Below, piece by piece: positions 51,839-58,146 of a stretch of 64,000 nucleotides of DNA. The position numbers and the translations under genes were made by a program. Each line of letters starts with the position of its first letter. The first letter of the stretch is position 1. Source of the DNA: Candidatus Latescibacterota bacterium (GTDB taxonomy: Bacteria; Latescibacterota; UBA2968); the NCBI GenBank assembly GCA_965198115.1, contig OZ240241.1, positions 4,384,001 through 4,448,000 on the forward strand, in the 5' to 3' direction. Below the pieces are notes generated by a model. It had not been told where the DNA came from. It saw only the letters and a list, made by a program, of their open reading frames with translations, and did not search any database.

Positions 51839-52423
51839 ATGCTCGAATGGCTCAAATCGATCTTTACCGGAGACAGCCCCCCCGTCGACGAGCCTCTGCC
51901 ACAGCTCGAGATGTTGCGCGATCACCTCAACGACCTGCCAGCCATCGTCATCCCCAATGGCTACGAATTGCGCACCTATCGAGACGGGGACGAACAGGCT
52001 TGGTGCGACATCATGGAAAACAACGTCGGTCAGAACTGGACGCGGGAGCGGTGCCGTATGCGCCTGATCGACGATCCGCGTTTCGACGGAGAAAATCTGT
52101 TCTTCGCGGTCCACGATGGGAAACCCGTTGCCAGCGCGTGCGCGTGGAAGGCCACGGTCGAAGAATCCGTCATGGGCGAGGTCCATATGGTCGCCGCCCT
52201 CGAATCCTACCGTGGCAAAGGTCTCGGACATCTCGTCAACACAGCCGTTCTCCACAGACTCCAAGAGCTCGGTTTCCAAAAGAGCCATCTGAAGACCGAC
52301 GACTACCGGCTGGCTGCCATTAACTCCTACCTCAAGGCCGGATTCGAACCCCTCAACACGCATATCAGCCACGCTGAGCGATGGGAAGCGATTATGGAAC
52401 GCCTGGAAGAAGGGCGAGCTTAA
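51839..52423 (+). CDS. GNAT family N-acetyltransferase
   Basis: VHMVAALESYRGKGLG acetyl-CoA motif; AINSYLKAGF. Confidence 0.85.
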   Translation: MLEWLKSIFTGDSPPVDEPLPQLEMLRDHLNDLPAIVIPNGYELRTYRDGDEQAWCDIMENNVGQNWTRERCRMRLIDDPRFDGENLFFAVHDGKPVASACAWKATVEESVMGEVHMVAALESYRGKGLGHLVNTAVLHRLQELGFQKSHLKTDDYRLAAINSYLKAGFEPLNTHISHAERWEAIMERLEEGRA

Positions 52424-52516
52424 TGGCACAGAGGTTATTGTCACCCCGACACGCCTCTTTGCGCCAACCAGCTGAGAATCACCTCCTTCCCGAATGCTCG
52501 ATTCTCGATCATCAAT

Positions 52517-53185
52517 TCAATAGTTCATCCCCATCGCAGCCTTGACACGCTCCAACGTCTGCTGACCCCGTATTCGTGCCTGCGACCCACCGAGGTTCAA
52601 CACGTCATTCACGAACGTAGGAACATACGTCTTCACTGCCTCTACAACAGTGTCACCGTCTTCACAGAAGTAAGGGGTCGGAATCGGAAAGACCTCCTCG
52701 TAGGCATCGTTGAACCGGCACGCAACGGCCTGCGCGAGCTCGATGTTCTCCCTTTGACTTTCAAAGACCAGCACGTAACGCGCTCCGAACATGAGAATGT
52801 CGGCGACTTGTGAAACCGGATAGCCCACGACGCTGAGGGACGTTCGTTTGGGCATTTCTCCCTGTTTCCGAATGTGCTTGCTCAGAAGATCCGTCAGCGT
52901 CACGAGGTTTCCCAAGATCATTGTCAGCTCCGACAGTTGTGGTACGGCCGACTGTAGAAAGCAGACCGATTGCTCGGGATCGAACCCGGCTACGAGGAAT
53001 CGTTCGACCGTCGCCTGGATCGCCCGATTCATCTTGATCCCGTGCTGACCCTTCCTCGTCAACGCCTGGTAATCTGCGATCATAAAGTGGCACTGGAACG
53101 TTTCCTGATAACCGAACAGCGGAGCGAGCCTCTCTGTTTTGCCTTCGAGCGCGGGTAGCACACCCGTAATCGCTACATCTCTCAT
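52517..53185 (-). CDS. Truncated tryptophanyl-tRNA synthetase paralog lacking HIGH, KMSKS and anticodon-binding domain
   Basis: IADYQALT, AGFDPEQS..FLQSAVPQLSELT, GYPVSQVADIL, RFNDAY..VFPIP and terminal TLERVKAAMGMNY are TrpRS-like; the ORF is uninterrupted (222 aa). Confidence 0.75.
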   Translation of the reverse strand: MRDVAITGVLPALEGKTERLAPLFGYQETFQCHFMIADYQALTRKGQHGIKMNRAIQATVERFLVAGFDPEQSVCFLQSAVPQLSELTMILGNLVTLTDLLSKHIRKQGEMPKRTSLSVVGYPVSQVADILMFGARYVLVFESQRENIELAQAVACRFNDAYEEVFPIPTPYFCEDGDTVVEAVKTYVPTFVNDVLNLGGSQARIRGQQTLERVKAAMGMNY

Positions 53186-53421
53186 CTCGAGCCATCCCTT
53201 CGTCTTTCTTGGAGTCTTGGTGTTTTGGTGGTTTGCTTGTCTAAACGAAAAAAGGCCGCGCACCCCCCGAAGGGACACGCGGCCTTGAGCCAGCATCGAT
53301 CGCGTCCGTCATCCGGTGGTGGGCGTACCTCTCCATCCAGCCACCACCACCAGCCACGAACGCTCGTGTCAGACACCATCGACAGTCTGCTGACACCGTT
53401 CTGCATTCCGTGCACGATCAT
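53182..53421 (-). CDS. Putative Trp leader ORF (RGWWWWL)
   Basis: Four tandem TGG codons at 53341-53352; ATGA overlaps with both the sigma stop and the TrpRS-like start; alternative ATG at 53379. Confidence 0.6.
   Translation of the reverse strand: MIVHGMQNGVSRLSMVSDTSVRGWWWWLDGEVRPPPDDGRDRCWLKAACPFGGCAAFFRLDKQTTKTPRLQERRRDGSR
53248..53286 (-). terminator. Intrinsic terminator/attenuator upstream of the TrpRS-like gene
   Basis: AAGGCCGCGTGTCCC-TTCG-GGGGGTGCGCGGCCTTTTTT on the minus strand. Confidence 0.85.
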
Positions 53422-55427
53422 TTTTCGACTCTCAGTCCCACCTTCACTTCTTCGACGAACTGACCCACTCTCCAAACCGCCTCCCCGATCTCGGTGAACG
53501 AATAGACCCCGTTTTCTCTGTTCATCAGGCTGTGCCGACCTTCCATCACCATCTGTCGTCGTGTCGTGGAATAGTCCCCGCACACCGACGCGACGATCCG
53601 GGTCAGCTCCTCTTCCTCGTAGTCTCGGATCTCTGGCAGCGTCCGAAGCCCCAGAATGGGATCGATATGCATCTCCTTGCCTCTGCTGGCTCCCTCATCC
53701 AGATACGCGGCTCCACGGATCCGTTCGATACGACGCAGTTCAAGCTCGGTCCGTTGCCGCGGTCCTTCGCCGACGTAAAGCGCGCGGGCGGCGACCTTCA
53801 TCAGTCTTCGATCACCTGATTTGGCGATCCGCGAGAGACAGGCACGCTTCTCGTCATCCGTAGCGACCTTTTTGTAGGCTCTCACTGCCGTCTCACGAAC
53901 GGATGGGTCTTCGTCTTCCTCCAGCCGCTCGAGTATGACGTCCTTGGCATCCACGTTGGCCCGCTTTCCCATCTCGTTCAGCACGCGCACACGTTCCGAG
54001 GGATCTTGATCGGTCACCTTCTCGATCAGTTCCTCCACGGTCTCCCGCACTTTGACACCCGGCACGTTGTACATCCGGCACGCGTCGAGAGCTCGGAGCC
54101 GGATGACCTCGTCATCTGATTCTGCAAGCGCCTTCAGCGAAGGGTGAATCCGGGCCGGCAGGAAGTGAACTTTCTCTCTGAAGAAGGATGTGTTGCGATG
54201 GAACGGCACCAGCATCAGTTCGTCCAGCATCCGGAAAGTGCGCTTGGAATCGCCCTCCTTGAAGACGCCGATCGCTGCGTCGCACAGCGGCTCGACGAGA
54301 TGAGCCAACGCCTTTCTCACGCCATACTCGACTTCATCATTCTCATCCAGCTCCCAGAACGCATCCCACAGCACCGGAAAGGCTTCCTCCGGATATCCGA
54401 GCAGGACCCGTGACAGCTCGAACATCTCTTTGTGAGTCTGTCCGGGTTGGCCGGAGTCTTTGATCGTCTGAATCAGCCGGACCAGCAGGCGAACCTTTTT
54501 CGCTTCCGTTGCGGGCGAGGCAATCACACCATCCAGCAGCAGGTTCACACCCCTCACGCCGTACCAGGATCTCAGAATCCAGCGTTCGGCCACCCGTGCC
54601 GCACGTTCCGCCAGTTCTTCGTCTTCCGACAGGCAGCAAGTGGCGAGAACCGGCATCGCCGGGACCAGCGAAAACCTCACGACGTGCGCGATGTGCACGA
54701 GACGCTCGTCGGTATCCGCCACTTTGAGCAGGTCGACCAGGCGAGCCGAATCGGCCTCGATCACCTGTCTCAACCGAACCATCGGCTCGCTATGGCCTTT
54801 GACCCTATCCACACCGTTCGCCGCCTCGACCTCCTCTTTCAGCGCGTCGAGCAGCTCGAGCTCGAGCCTGAAGCGAATCGCAAGATCTGTCTCTTCCATT
54901 GTGTAATCCTCTAAGCCTGAGATGGCTTTCCGCAAAGCGTTCTTGGCGCGGTGAATCCGACTCATCACCGTGCCGATCGGCATACCCAAATCATCGGCGA
55001 TCTCCTGGTAGGAGAGTCCAATCCGATAGCACAGATCCAGGATCTGTTGATGGTCCGAATTCAGCAGAGCGATGCCGTGAGCCACGCGATCGTATTCCTG
55101 GGCATCATCCTCGCGCTGTATCGTCTCGACCAGGATCTCCGGATCGGGAATCGCCTTCTGCACACGATACCAGGACCGACAGAGGTTCCGTGTGATCGTG
55201 CGAAGCCACGCCGCGAAGAACTCGGGGTTACGCAACTGATCGAGTTTGAGATAGGCTTCGACGAATGACTCGAGGACGAGATCTTCCGCATCATCCTCAT
55301 CCCGCGTGAACTTCCGACAGATGGCGCGAACGTCGGCCTCGAAGGCCTGCATCAAGGTCCCAAACGCATCCCGATCGCCGTCCCTCGCCTTTAGAACTAG
55401 GTGCGTGTAAGAGGTCTGGGTCTTCAT
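53418..55427 (-). CDS. ECF sigma-70 factor with ~500-aa C-terminal extension (HEAT-like repeats, DUF2087-like tail)
   Basis: DAEDLVLESFVEAY, FAAWLRTITRNLC, LSYQEIADDLGMPIGTVMSRIHRAK; repeats DEVIRLRAL, DPSERVRVL, DPSVRETAV; tail YEEEELTRIV..DYSTTRRQMV. Confidence 0.8.
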   Translation of the reverse strand: MKTQTSYTHLVLKARDGDRDAFGTLMQAFEADVRAICRKFTRDEDDAEDLVLESFVEAYLKLDQLRNPEFFAAWLRTITRNLCRSWYRVQKAIPDPEILVETIQREDDAQEYDRVAHGIALLNSDHQQILDLCYRIGLSYQEIADDLGMPIGTVMSRIHRAKNALRKAISGLEDYTMEETDLAIRFRLELELLDALKEEVEAANGVDRVKGHSEPMVRLRQVIEADSARLVDLLKVADTDERLVHIAHVVRFSLVPAMPVLATCCLSEDEELAERAARVAERWILRSWYGVRGVNLLLDGVIASPATEAKKVRLLVRLIQTIKDSGQPGQTHKEMFELSRVLLGYPEEAFPVLWDAFWELDENDEVEYGVRKALAHLVEPLCDAAIGVFKEGDSKRTFRMLDELMLVPFHRNTSFFREKVHFLPARIHPSLKALAESDDEVIRLRALDACRMYNVPGVKVRETVEELIEKVTDQDPSERVRVLNEMGKRANVDAKDVILERLEEDEDPSVRETAVRAYKKVATDDEKRACLSRIAKSGDRRLMKVAARALYVGEGPRQRTELELRRIERIRGAAYLDEGASRGKEMHIDPILGLRTLPEIRDYEEEELTRIVASVCGDYSTTRRQMVMEGRHSLMNRENGVYSFTEIGEAVWRVGQFVEEVKVGLRVEK

Positions 55428-55428
55428 C

Positions 55429-56359
55429 TCACTCGAAGGTGGCGAGCAGTGACTTGATCCTGTCCAGAAATGCCGGACCCTTCTTCTCGTTGGCGTAACT
55501 GTAGAACAACCGCTCGAAGATCAGGATCGCCAGCGTGTAGAACCTGTAGAGCGGCGCATCCCGGTCCAGACGCAGGCCATATCCCGACAGAAGCCGTTCG
55601 ACGTCGAACGGTAGCCGAGGGTTGTCGATGTGGCGTTCGATGATCGCGATCTCGAGGAGCGGGTCCCCGGCCATCGCCTCGGCATAGTCCAGGATACCGA
55701 CAATACGCCTGCCCTCTTTCGACAGGATCAGGTTGCCATTGTAGAAGTAGTCCATATGGAGAAGCCGCTTTTCGACCTGCTCCAGTTGTGGATGAAGACG
55801 CGATGGCAGCGAGCAAAGGATGTCGGCTTCATCGCGTGTGAGCAGCCCCTGGTCGTAGTAGTCCTTCGATGCCACCTCGCAGGGGAACATCTCCCCCCAG
55901 TGATCCGAAGCGGGTCCGAACCAACGCTCGGGAGGATCGTCCCCGAGGAAGCAGAAGGGCCCATCAAACGTGAGGTCGTGGATTCGGCGCAGTTGTTCGC
56001 CACACTCACCTTCATCCAACAGAAACGAATCATCCTGCCAATGGGCCTGCACACCGTCGATGTACTCCCAGATGCTCGCCCCACGGCCGTCTCGGTCTTC
56101 GCCCCGGTCCAGACCTATGAGTTCGGGCACGGGCAGTCCGGCTTCTTGTAGCCTCTGATGGAAGTAGACCCCGACCGGCTCAGCTTGAACGTTTCGCTGG
56201 ACCTTGAGGAACATCATCTCCTGTCCCTTCCGGACGCGGTAGCAGTAGTTCGCACGCCCCGAGGGGTGGGCGCACACGTTCGACCGCATCCGGCGCATAG
56301 CCCAGAAGGTTCTCCGCCCTAGCGAGGGCATCGGAATCGATATCTGTGGCCTTGTTCAT
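55429..56359 (-). CDS. Aminoglycoside phosphotransferase/choline kinase-like protein (possible frameshift near 56280)
   Basis: FLKV, AGLPVPEL, LLHMDYFYNGNLIL, ILDYAEAMAGDP. A plausible N-terminus MNKATDIDSDALARAENLLG from ATG 56359 is out of frame with the ORF at 55429-56331. Confidence 0.72.
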
Positions 56360-56407
56360 TGGTTACACCCTATCGACGCGATCTCTATCCATTTATTCCA
56401 GCAAGAA

Positions 56408-56442
56408 CGAAAAAACCCGCATCCGATTGTCCGGAGCGGGTT
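56408..56442 (-). terminator. Attenuator terminator
   Basis: AACCCGCTCCGGA-CAA-TCGGATGCGGGTTTTTT on the minus strand. Confidence 0.85.
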
Positions 56443-56469
56443 CAAGGCGATTCTCAGTGGAACTCGAAT

Positions 56470-56568
56470 TCAGCGCAATCGACACGACCCTCCGGACACG
56501 AGTAGACCTGTCCAGCCCCACCATAGGCCGGTTGTACTGAGGGTCGAAAGAGGAGATCGGGTCGCCAT
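56470..56568 (-). CDS. Trp attenuator leader peptide MATRSPLSTLSTTGLWWGWTGLLVSGGSCRLR
   Basis: TGG TGG GGC TGG at 56512-56523; lies between a promoter and a terminator; mutually exclusive stems are present. Confidence 0.75.
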   Translation of the reverse strand: MATRSPLSTLSTTGLWWGWTGLLVSGGSCRLR

Positions 56569-56578
56569 CACAGCAAAA

Positions 56579-56607
56579 AGGATAGACGGAACCTCATTTC
56601 GTGTCAA
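56579..56607 (-). promoter_or_regulatory. Sigma70 promoter of the Trp-leader unit
   Basis: TTGACA-N17-TATCCT on the minus strand; the predicted TSS falls at the leader start. Confidence 0.75.
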
Positions 56608-56694
56608 GCCGCAAGACCTTATCATACCGCTCGAATCGCTGGAACATCGCCTGTTCTCTCCTGACGACTGACAACTGACGGCTGGAAACTGCCT

Positions 56695-58146
56695 ATGGGC
56701 CCCAACCTCCTTTACATCCACTCCGACCAGCACAGCCCTTTTGTCGCCGGCTGCTACGGCGATGAAGCCATCGAAACACCCCATCTCGATCGACTGGCCG
56801 CTCGCGGGGTCACGCTGGACAACGTCTACTGCCCATCGCCGATCTGCGTGCCGTCGCGAATGGCAATGCTGACCGGTCGCTACCCACACGAAAACGAAGT
56901 CTGGACCAACAACCACATCCTCGACTCCGCCATACCCACGTTCGCTCACGCGATGGGAGCGGCGGGTTACGATCCGATCCTTGTCGGCCGAATGCACTCG
57001 AACGGGCCTGACCAGCTTCACGGCTATGCCGAGCGGTTCGTAGGCGACCACGGCCCGAACCTGCCGAACGGTCGCCCCGTCAATCACGGTATGCTGCAAG
57101 GAACGGCCGGGCCCAGTCGTGTGAGTATTCGAAAGTCAGGTATCGGCCAGAGCGCCTACCAGGTTCACGACGAGGACGTGACAGCTGCGACCGTTGCCTG
57201 TCTCGACCGTCTTGGTGTTCAGTCCAGAGCGGGAACACTCTCGAAGCCCTTCAGCCTCTCCGTTGGCTTTATGCTCCCACACCAACCGTTTGTGGCCCGT
57301 CGCGAGGATTTTGAACGATTCGCCGGGCGTGTGCCTCCACCTCGATCACCGGTCCCATACTCTGAGGATCTACATCCACACTTCCAAAAATGGCGACAGG
57401 AATGTGGCATCGCGACGGAGATTCCTGCCCATCAAGTGGACAGTGCACGCACCGCCTATTGGGCCCTCGTCTACCGAAAGGACGCGATGATCGGTCAGAT
57501 CCTCGACGCGTTGAAGGAGAATGGCTTCGAAGACGACACGATCGTCGTCTACTCGTCGGATCACGGCGAGCAGGTCGGTGAACACGGTCTCTGGTGGAAG
57601 CAAACGTTCTACGACGATTCGGCCAAGGTCCCTGGTATCATCGCCTGGCCGGGAGAGATCCCGGAAGGGACCCGAATCGATCGCGTCGTCAGCGCGCTCG
57701 ACATCAACGCCACGATGATCGACGCTCTGGAAGGCCCACCCCTTCCAACGAGCCGTGGACGATCCCTGTTACCTCTCTGGGGCGACCCGAGCTCGGAGTG
57801 GGAAGATATCGCATTCAGCGAGTACTGCACCGAGGACGGCTGCCTCCATCGGATGATCAGGCGTGGTCCTTGGAAACTCTGTTATTACCACGGTCAGCCC
57901 TCCCAGCTGTTCAATGTGGAAAAAGACCCGCGAGAGATGACTGACCGGATCGACGACCCCGAGTGCACAGACATCGCATCCGAGCTGACCAGTCGGGTTC
58001 TGGACGGCTGGGATCCGGATCTGATCTGGGAGAGGATTCAGACAAAGACGGAGGAATGGAATCTGCTGGCGCGATGGGGACGCAGCGTGCAGCCCGAAGA
58101 CACTCATCGATGGGATCTTCGCCCCGAGATGGACTACCTCGAGTGA
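56695..58146 (+). CDS. Cys-type sulfatase (choline-sulfatase-like)
   Basis: PNLLYIHSDQH, CPSPICVPSRMAMLTG (CxPxR), GRMH, SSDHGE, WWKQTFY. Confidence 0.9.
   Translation: MGPNLLYIHSDQHSPFVAGCYGDEAIETPHLDRLAARGVTLDNVYCPSPICVPSRMAMLTGRYPHENEVWTNNHILDSAIPTFAHAMGAAGYDPILVGRMHSNGPDQLHGYAERFVGDHGPNLPNGRPVNHGMLQGTAGPSRVSIRKSGIGQSAYQVHDEDVTAATVACLDRLGVQSRAGTLSKPFSLSVGFMLPHQPFVARREDFERFAGRVPPPRSPVPYSEDLHPHFQKWRQECGIATEIPAHQVDSARTAYWALVYRKDAMIGQILDALKENGFEDDTIVVYSSDHGEQVGEHGLWWKQTFYDDSAKVPGIIAWPGEIPEGTRIDRVVSALDINATMIDALEGPPLPTSRGRSLLPLWGDPSSEWEDIAFSEYCTEDGCLHRMIRRGPWKLCYYHGQPSQLFNVEKDPREMTDRIDDPECTDIASELTSRVLDGWDPDLIWERIQTKTEEWNLLARWGRSVQPEDTHRWDLRPEMDYLE

Follow-up and report, generated by a model that had tools for sequence, protein, structure and literature searches.

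We identified a tryptophan-codon leader in the window (the whole 64,000-nucleotide stretch analyzed here) that is very likely a classical ribosome-mediated Trp attenuator. The leader, which we call att1, is the first of a tandem pair, and in relatives the pair precedes trpS2, a second gene for tryptophanyl-tRNA synthetase. In the genome of the window (G000), the second Trp leader, att2, is found ~3 kb downstream and trpS2 lies 3.2 kb downstream of att1, behind unrelated genes. Our overall reading, which we regard as probable, is that att1 is a working attenuator that has been split from att2 by intervening genes, for a kinase and an ECF sigma factor, that have their own predicted promoter. The original prediction described the attenuator as standing in front of a non-trp gene. 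This is misleading: although a frameshifted APH-fold kinase gene comes next, att2 and a trpS paralog close the unit, and a predicted ECF promoter directly follows the att1 terminator; none of these three was part of the original prediction.

The att1 leader is composed of the following features.

56579 to 56607, minus strand: sigma-70-type promoter TTGACA-17-TATCCT, with boxes at 56607-56602 and 56584-56579, a 17-nt spacer and a 10/12 match.
56470 to 56571, minus strand: leader ORF, with GTG at 56571 or ATG at 56568, 32 codons from the ATG and stop codon TGA at 56472-56470; the start is predicted to be leaderless or near-leaderless.
56539 to 56546, minus strand: CGACCCTC, an extension of the 1:2 pairing and the exact complement of GAGGGTCG at 56492-56485; partly kept in the related genome G001.
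56512 to 56523, minus strand: Trp codons TGG TGG GGC TGG, of which the WW doublet is conserved and the third Trp is not.
56509 to 56515, minus strand: segment 1, CTGGACA, which overlaps the third Trp codon and has the 5′ part of segment 2 as its pairing partner; genus specific.
56488 to 56498, minus strand: segment 2, TGTCCGGAG-GG, the 5′ strand of the antiterminator, within the leader ORF.
56410 to 56440, minus strand: intrinsic terminator, with segment 3 at 56440-56428, segment 4 at 56425-56416 and T6 at 56415-56410.

The predicted leader peptide is (V)MATRSPLSTLSTTGLWWGWTGLLVSGGSCRLR*. The TGTCCGGAG portion of segment 2 (56498-56490) is the exact 9-nt complement of CTCCGGACA (56436-56428) in the 5′ arm of the terminator. 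Local energies (in kcal/mol) were −29.1 for the 1:2 pairing with its extension, −12.4 for the inner 1:2 pairing, −24.8 for 2:3 and −19.3 for 3:4. All elements named in the original prediction were found in the window: the overlap of segment 1 with the last Trp codon and its pairing with segment 2, the perfect 9-bp match to the terminator arm and the 1:2 extension, along with a GTG and an ATG 7 and 10 nt past the −10 box with no Shine-Dalgarno (SD) sequence between. TTGACA-17-TATCCT was the sole promoter-like site in a scan of 52300 to 56700. An upstream ORF, MRFRLSFLL*, that would couple into the leader ATG was rejected, as it overlies the promoter and is not retained in G001 or G010. Upstream of the −35 box, at 56629-56612, is the sequence TATGATAA, which is kept in G001 and whose reverse complement reads TATCAT on the plus strand; it is likely the −10 box of a sulfatase gene at 56695 that runs in the opposite direction, so that the two promoters would stand back to back.

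The 8.4-Mb G000 genome contains 914 hairpins that satisfy our terminator rule. A 9-nt Watson-Crick complement within 100 nt upstream was found for only 5 of these, and a WW-containing frame with a start codon was found for 9; att1 alone had both. For the remaining 7 matches to WW plus terminator, examined by translation only, no obvious leader was seen. The 2:3 duplex of att1 (−20.2) was equalled by 1 of 300 shuffled sequences. We considered the possibility that att1 is an ordinary terminator or divergent-promoter region that contains a Trp-bearing frame by accident. The total folding energy of the leader is unremarkable (z score of −0.74), and a search of the whole 64-kb window against 4,227 Rfam families at the gathering score, Trp_leader and T-box included, gave 0 matches; the region has a GC content of 59% and contains the probable sulfatase promoter as well. 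A simple terminator scan also overlooks the att1 hairpin, probably because of a bulged U. The genome background (1 in 914) argues against coincidence, as do the 38 homologous loci, the covariation and the synteny with att2 and trpS2 described below; the idea is contradicted by the retention of the WW position, segment 2 and the terminator across three families. We regard chance as extremely improbable.

Searching 168 genomes of the phylum for trpS2 yielded 38 loci, the window included. The gene was present in 27 of the 30 other genomes of the family, 9/22 genomes of a sister family and 1/3 genomes of a third family; one homolog clusters with a protein labeled Ca. Handelsmanbacteria. An att1 homolog was found at 38/38 trpS2 loci, 37 of them by rule. 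The rule-based scan covered 39 loci and missed two, G006, whose att1 was found separately, and G027, which has no trpS2; at the latter locus (L026, sister family), where only the main trpS is present, no att1 was found by rule. Outside the phylum, 6 TrpRS loci (37 to 47% identity) had no WW frame in the upstream 219 to 460 nt. Further homologs of the window clade were few: a class-wide pattern search matched 3 of 132 genomes, and a metagenome scan returned 4 contigs, all from the G001 or G010 species. One additional contig, from X2, matches att1 from the promoter to the Trp codons and again at the terminator, with a diverged middle; as a single contig of depth 2, it was left out of the counts.

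A WW or W-x-W motif is present in the leader at 38/38 loci, in a peptide that is otherwise variable. In the comparison of G000 with G001, the leader has a dS of 0.33 and a dN of 0.41 (a rough estimate from 32 codons), while seven other gene stretches have dS values of 1.47 to 2.03, indicating that the nucleotides of the leader are kept and the peptide is not. A Trp-induced stalling peptide of the TnaC type, which combines a conserved peptide with Rho-dependent termination, was considered and rejected, since the att1 peptide is not conserved and an intrinsic terminator is present.

The pairings that define the switch co-vary among homologous leaders. For the terminator, aligned at 18 of the 38 loci, 89.9% of cells were paired and two-sided changes occurred in 7/11 pairs; none of 500 shuffles reached this level of pairing, and slid controls gave ≤55.6%. 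Part of the unpaired cells is accounted for by the bulged hairpins of the window clade. Because MAFFT failed to align segment 2 across clades, antiterminator pairs were counted by anchoring on the terminator arm. Of six core pairs, all six were formed at 25 loci, five at 11 and four at 1 (37 loci; G006 not included), with a shifted register in G003 and G009. In the window clade (G000 and G001), the segment 3 core CTCCGG occurs with CCGGAG in segment 2, while in genus g4 the segment 3 core CGTCGG occurs with CTGACG in segment 2, and segment 4 alters in step. For segment 2 of the window clade, the pairing energy is −19.5 with the segment 3 of that clade and −12.2 to −16.7 with those of other clades; own-clade preference was absent in 3 of 6 clades (B, D and F), which pair equally or better with another clade's segment 3. 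Measured against shuffles, the 2:3 duplex was equalled or exceeded by ≤15 of 300 at 26/38 loci, close kin among these not being independent; the other 12 failed, with G001 at 16/300.

Within the original scheme of ribosome-mediated attenuation by alternative 1:2, 2:3 and 3:4 pairings, the 2:3 antiterminator and the 3:4 terminator are borne out by conservation and covariation over the 38 loci; the 1:2 helix is the weak element. It is present in the window, but segment 1 reads CCGGACA in G001 and is absent in G010, and the CGACCCTC extension has one mismatch and one G-U pair in G001. The third Trp codon encodes Arg in G001. The 1:2 helix and the third Trp are lineage specific.

In the proposed mechanism, transcription would begin at or near the GTG/ATG. 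With charged tRNA-Trp in short supply, the ribosome would stall on the WW codons and mask segment 1; segment 2, left unoccupied, could then pair with segment 3 ahead of the synthesis of segment 4, and polymerase would read through into the broken kinase gene, the sigma gene and att2. With Trp plentiful, the ribosome would cross segment 2 and reach the stop codon; the 1:2 pairing would re-form behind it, and 3:4 would terminate transcription at T6. We modeled switching by folding the transcript to the terminator loop with the ribosome footprint masked and segment 4 not yet made. P(2:3) was ~0.9 when the A site held any of the Trp codons and fell to 0.00 to 0.01 at codon +64 to +94, which is the geometry of a classical attenuator. 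For a ribosome at the stop codon, the outcome varied with the 5′ cover assumed. With covers of 12, 15, 18 and 21 nt, P(2:3) was 0.11, 0.60, 0 and 0 in G000 and 0.91, 0.97, 0.34 and 0 in G001. P(2:3) was 0.78 in G000 with no ribosome, and ribosomes upstream of the Trp codons also yielded high values, suggesting that the off state may leak and that shut-off would depend on timing and on re-formation of 1:2. The complete transcript, when folded at equilibrium, adopts the terminator in every case (P of 0.98 to 1.00), so switching would rest on the order of folding, as it does in other attenuators.

Initiation at the att1 leader start codon without a 5′ UTR is somewhat favored by the available evidence. 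An in-frame ATG lies 10, 9 and 10 nt past the −10 box in G000, G001 and G010, respectively, with promoter spacing kept and no SD; both promoter boxes are retained in G001 and G010, where the leader is also 32 codons long. Predicted ECF promoters in G082, G083, G010 and G113 likewise end 6 to 10 nt before an ATG, which counts toward leaderless initiation. Counting against it, among 6,920 candidate ATGs of long ORFs genome-wide, no TAnnnT peak was seen 6 to 10 nt before the ATG in a scan that was crude and used no gene caller, and that recovered a strong SD peak at 5 to 6 nt. TTGAC-N16-18-TAnnnY occurs upstream at most genus g4 loci and in G005 and G009. In the other clades read (genus g4, G005 and G079), the leader has a longer 5′ UTR and an SD-led start; compared with these, att1 of the window has apparently lost its SD-bearing 5′ UTR.

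The stretch between att1 and att2 takes several forms. Nothing lies between the two leaders at 24 of the 38 loci; 9 carry the main trpS, 1 carries a DUF2087 gene (G003), 1 carries a 127-amino-acid gene (G006) and 3 carry the sigma cassette (G000, G001 and G010), which includes the kinase in G000 and G001 only. The pair in the window is thus 3 kb apart, with the kinase, the ECF sigma gene and the predicted ECF promoter in between, in contrast to the adjacent att1-att2 pairs of relatives. The features downstream of the att1 terminator are listed below.

56373 to 56400, minus strand: predicted autoregulatory promoter of the ECF sigma factor, TGGAATAA at 56400-56393 and CGTCGA at 56378-56373.
55429 to 56359, minus strand: APH-fold phosphotransferase (kinase) gene, frameshifted near 56250, with a 59-amino-acid frame from ATG 56359 and the body in another frame (PF01636, E value of 9e-18).
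53418 to 55427, minus strand: ECF sigma, HEAT repeat and DUF2087 fusion of 669 amino acids in an open frame that starts 1 nt after the kinase stop.
53248 to 53421, minus strand: att2, whose leader ATG at 53421 overlaps the sigma stop codon as ATGA, with four Trp codons at 53352-53341, CCACCACC at 53322-53315 and a terminator of 16 pairs at 53286-53248.
52517 to 53185, minus strand: trpS2, a degenerate trpS paralog of 222 amino acids without HIGH, KMSKS and most of the anticodon-binding domain.

The kinase break is probably real, since a separately assembled contig from run X1, possibly the source sample, is identical over 52300 to 56736, the frameshift included; an assembly error was rejected for the same reason. 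In G001, the 5′ part of the kinase is in frame and the gene is broken at a different place than in G000, and the G001 breaks recur in 3 metagenome contigs. The presence of an APH-fold gene behind the leader raises the alternative that the leader senses general ribosome slowing or a drug, rather than tRNA-Trp specifically, with the kinase as a resistance output; leaders that control resistance genes are known. We consider this very unlikely. The kinase is present at 2 of the 38 att1 loci and broken in both, and it scores 20 bits against the APH(3′) equivalog NF033068, far below the cutoff of 205, so that it is not an APH(3′) equivalog. The leader peptide is not conserved outside its Trp codons, and a trpS paralog is present at all 38 loci.

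The sigma gene has a sigma-2/sigma-4 core, and no anti-sigma gene was seen beside it. ESM Atlas matches to its extension were all under 0.8. An ECF-type motif, GGAATA-N15-CGTC, lies 10 nt past the att1 U-run, and TGGAATAA-N14-CGTC is retained after the terminator in G000, G001 and G010. The pattern GGAAT[AC]-N15/16-[CG][GA]TC[TG], which was written from its own instances, had a single match in 10 of 14 genomes with sigma homologs, placed shortly before the sigma gene or the kinase that precedes it, and no match at 13 control loci. A narrower pattern gave 10 matches in G000 versus 3 to 14 at other spacings; in the absence of a clear genome-wide excess, no regulon is evident. In G082 and G083, which have the closest sigma homologs (54% identity), the motif is present and no Trp leader occurs in the 1,500 nt upstream, suggesting that the cassette likely came with its own promoter. 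Active sigma would then be able to transcribe the cassette from the promoter past the terminator, without att1, and read-through at att1 would contribute an input that depends on Trp.

In four genera, the att1-att2-trpS2 locus contains or adjoins DUF2087 genes, which either stand alone or form fusions with sigma-HEAT or HEAT proteins: at L068 (G009), L066 (G003), L067 (G006, where the upstream gene was judged by eye) and L023 (G010). The link may predate a single insertion, since genes with DUF2087 are found at the locus or next to it in G000, G001, G010, G009 and G003, the sigma of G009 being a more distant paralog upstream of att1. G080 has the same kinase-sigma pair at a site apart from trpS (L078, G080:C1:2465846-2469580), where the 5′ end of the kinase is apparently cut by a transposase-like element.

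Omega values in comparison with G001 were 0.10 for the kinase, 0.09 to 0.12 for sigma and 0.16 for trpS2, versus 0.03 to 0.09 for three flanking genes, indicating that the kinase, sigma and trpS2 have been under purifying selection for most of the time. Breaks were nonetheless found in the kinase (G000 and G001), in sigma (G001 and G010) and in trpS2 (three TAG stops in G001), and since the cargo is broken in sister genomes, it may be a passenger. These observations bear on an alternative in which att1 is a relic: once a true trpS2 attenuator, it would, since the arrival of the sigma cassette and its promoter behind the terminator, be mainly an insulating terminator, and the cassette would be expressed from the ECF promoter regardless of Trp. 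The position of the ECF motif 10 nt past the U-run fits such a history, as do its presence in G082 and G083 without a Trp leader, the broken cargo and trpS2 of sister genomes and the kinase-sigma pair away from trpS in G080; the gene losses could also be too recent to have marked the leader. The −35 and −10 boxes, the ATG, the WW doublet, the frame length and segment 2, however, are all kept despite near-saturated synonymous sites, and segment 2 followed the clade-specific change in segment 3, which an insulator would not need. We judge the relic unlikely and favor a working attenuator.

A bolder version of the working attenuator is that it has been rewired to trigger a positive-feedback loop. 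A Trp shortage would allow the first sigma to be made, and sigma would then activate the promoter that it has past the terminator; att2, tied by coupling to the stop codon of sigma, would release a noncatalytic TrpRS-like protein kept by purifying selection after the loss of HIGH, KMSKS and the anticodon domain. If true, amino acid attenuation would latch a stress regulon and a pseudo-synthetase. We put this forward as a tentative and rather doubtful proposal.

For the att2 leader, translational coupling to the stop codon of sigma is predicted, and att2 would act as a second Trp check before the degenerate trpS2. By rule, att2 was found at 36 of the 38 loci, and the two misses (G022 and G082) show it by eye. 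An overlap of the ATG with the upstream stop like that in G000 is visible in G001 and G080. The design of att2 is unlike that of att1: here it is the Trp codons that form a consensus helix with CCACCACC, a stretch coding for Pro-Pro-Pro. The att2 terminator covaries, with four two-sided changes, and the att2 frame usually runs through the terminator. At 53323-53313 and in homologs, CCACCACCG lies in frame as Pro-Pro-Pro (PQP or PTP at two loci) at a fixed distance past the Trp codons; a polyproline pause may replace the stop codon in att2, holding the ribosome on segment 2.

Against TIGR00233, trpS2 of the window scores 86 bits (cutoff of 176.75), while the G079 homolog passes at 250. Because G001 shares the lost motifs, trpS2 was apparently selected in an already degenerate form. 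G000 has a complete main trpS elsewhere, and no Trp leader was seen in the 470 nt read upstream of it. In 11 of 21 g4 genomes (L029-L038 and L040), trpS2 lacks KMSKS and the anticodon-binding domain through an in-frame internal deletion. These deletions have at least 3 different junctions, are intermixed with full-length forms in a quick tree and always retain the C-terminal helix. Comparable short forms occur in the sister family, and the observation also takes in L057 and the window at 52517-53185; the TrpRS tree is a quick version in which the long branch of the window is not placeable.

Outside the window, G000 carries another leader (L113; G000:C1:5579489-5579340, minus strand) before a trpE-aro cluster, with TTGACA-17-TACTGT, the leader peptide MKTQNTRYDRYFSRRAFYWFAIPLSVCPFV*, a hairpin (−17.0) and T7. 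A second promoter-like site lies downstream of its terminator. Leaders rich in Phe, Tyr and Trp with a similar terminator precede trpE in G000 and in 5/5 relatives checked, and most have an SD. The trpE leader is a candidate attenuator that would sense the full set of three aromatic amino acids, and the presence of such leaders in the lineage counts in favor of the att1 account.

As a switch, att1 is textbook. E. coli trpL is the classical leader-peptide attenuator. In Corynebacterium and Streptomyces, attenuators have been predicted for trp and trpS2 (PMC1262725). Leaders of the trpL and actinobacterial types share with att1 a short ORF with double or triple UGG, a GC-rich terminator with a U tract and an overlapping antiterminator, and the actinobacterial trpS2 attenuators also share an aminoacyl-tRNA synthetase paralog as the target. 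Unlike them, att1 is unrelated in sequence, has no gGCC-rGCy-GGCC triple and carries segment 2 inside the ORF, and its unit places two different attenuators in series with unrelated genes between. Leaderless Trp leaders before trpS are likewise already known in Streptomyces: in Streptomyces lividans, trpL1 (trpE) and trpL2 (trpS) are leaderless with mapped transcription start sites (PMC8079986). Like trpL2, att1 is a Trp leader predicted to lie at or near the 5′ end of the transcript, before a trpS gene; the start site is mapped in S. lividans and predicted for att1, whose genome shows no leaderless peak and whose counterparts in other clades use an SD. In S. coelicolor, an auxiliary antibiotic-resistant TrpRS is reportedly under ribosome-mediated attenuation (Vecchione and Sello, 2010). 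Unlike the synthetases of S. lividans and S. coelicolor, trpS2 of the window lacks HIGH and KMSKS.

In the B. subtilis pyr operon, genes lie between attenuators that are controlled by the PyrR protein; in Salmonella mgtCBR, the ORFs occupy a single leader and respond to other signals. The mgtCBR attenuators are in tandem (PMC3641672). These systems and att1/att2 are alike in having serial attenuators on one transcript; att1 and att2 are both Trp-codon leaders. ECF sigma factors usually autoregulate, and some have C-terminal extensions (PMC7826278). The sigma gene of the window resembles them in its sigma-2/sigma-4 core, its fused extension and the bipartite motif just upstream, and it differs in its HEAT plus DUF2087 extension and in its placement behind an amino acid attenuator. 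Attenuators that change genes have been discussed (PMC2965389). A literature search, mostly without subscription papers, found no paper dealing with attenuators of this lineage and none in which a Trp leader stands before an ECF sigma. The layout is new: an ECF cassette that carries a predicted promoter separates att1, itself probably leaderless, from att2, and the unit ends in a pseudo-synthetase.

Given the decay of the cargo in sister genomes, the expected payoff is limited. The locus offers a promoter consensus for the uncharacterized sigma-HEAT-DUF2087 family and possible Trp control of that sigma, and the role of the repeatedly shortened TrpRS paralogs is worth asking about. The att1 clades indicate that an SD-led leader can apparently turn leaderless. 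With one attenuator pair in five layouts over 38 loci, the family provides a natural experiment, in which the layouts show genes gaining amino acid control by landing behind a terminator.
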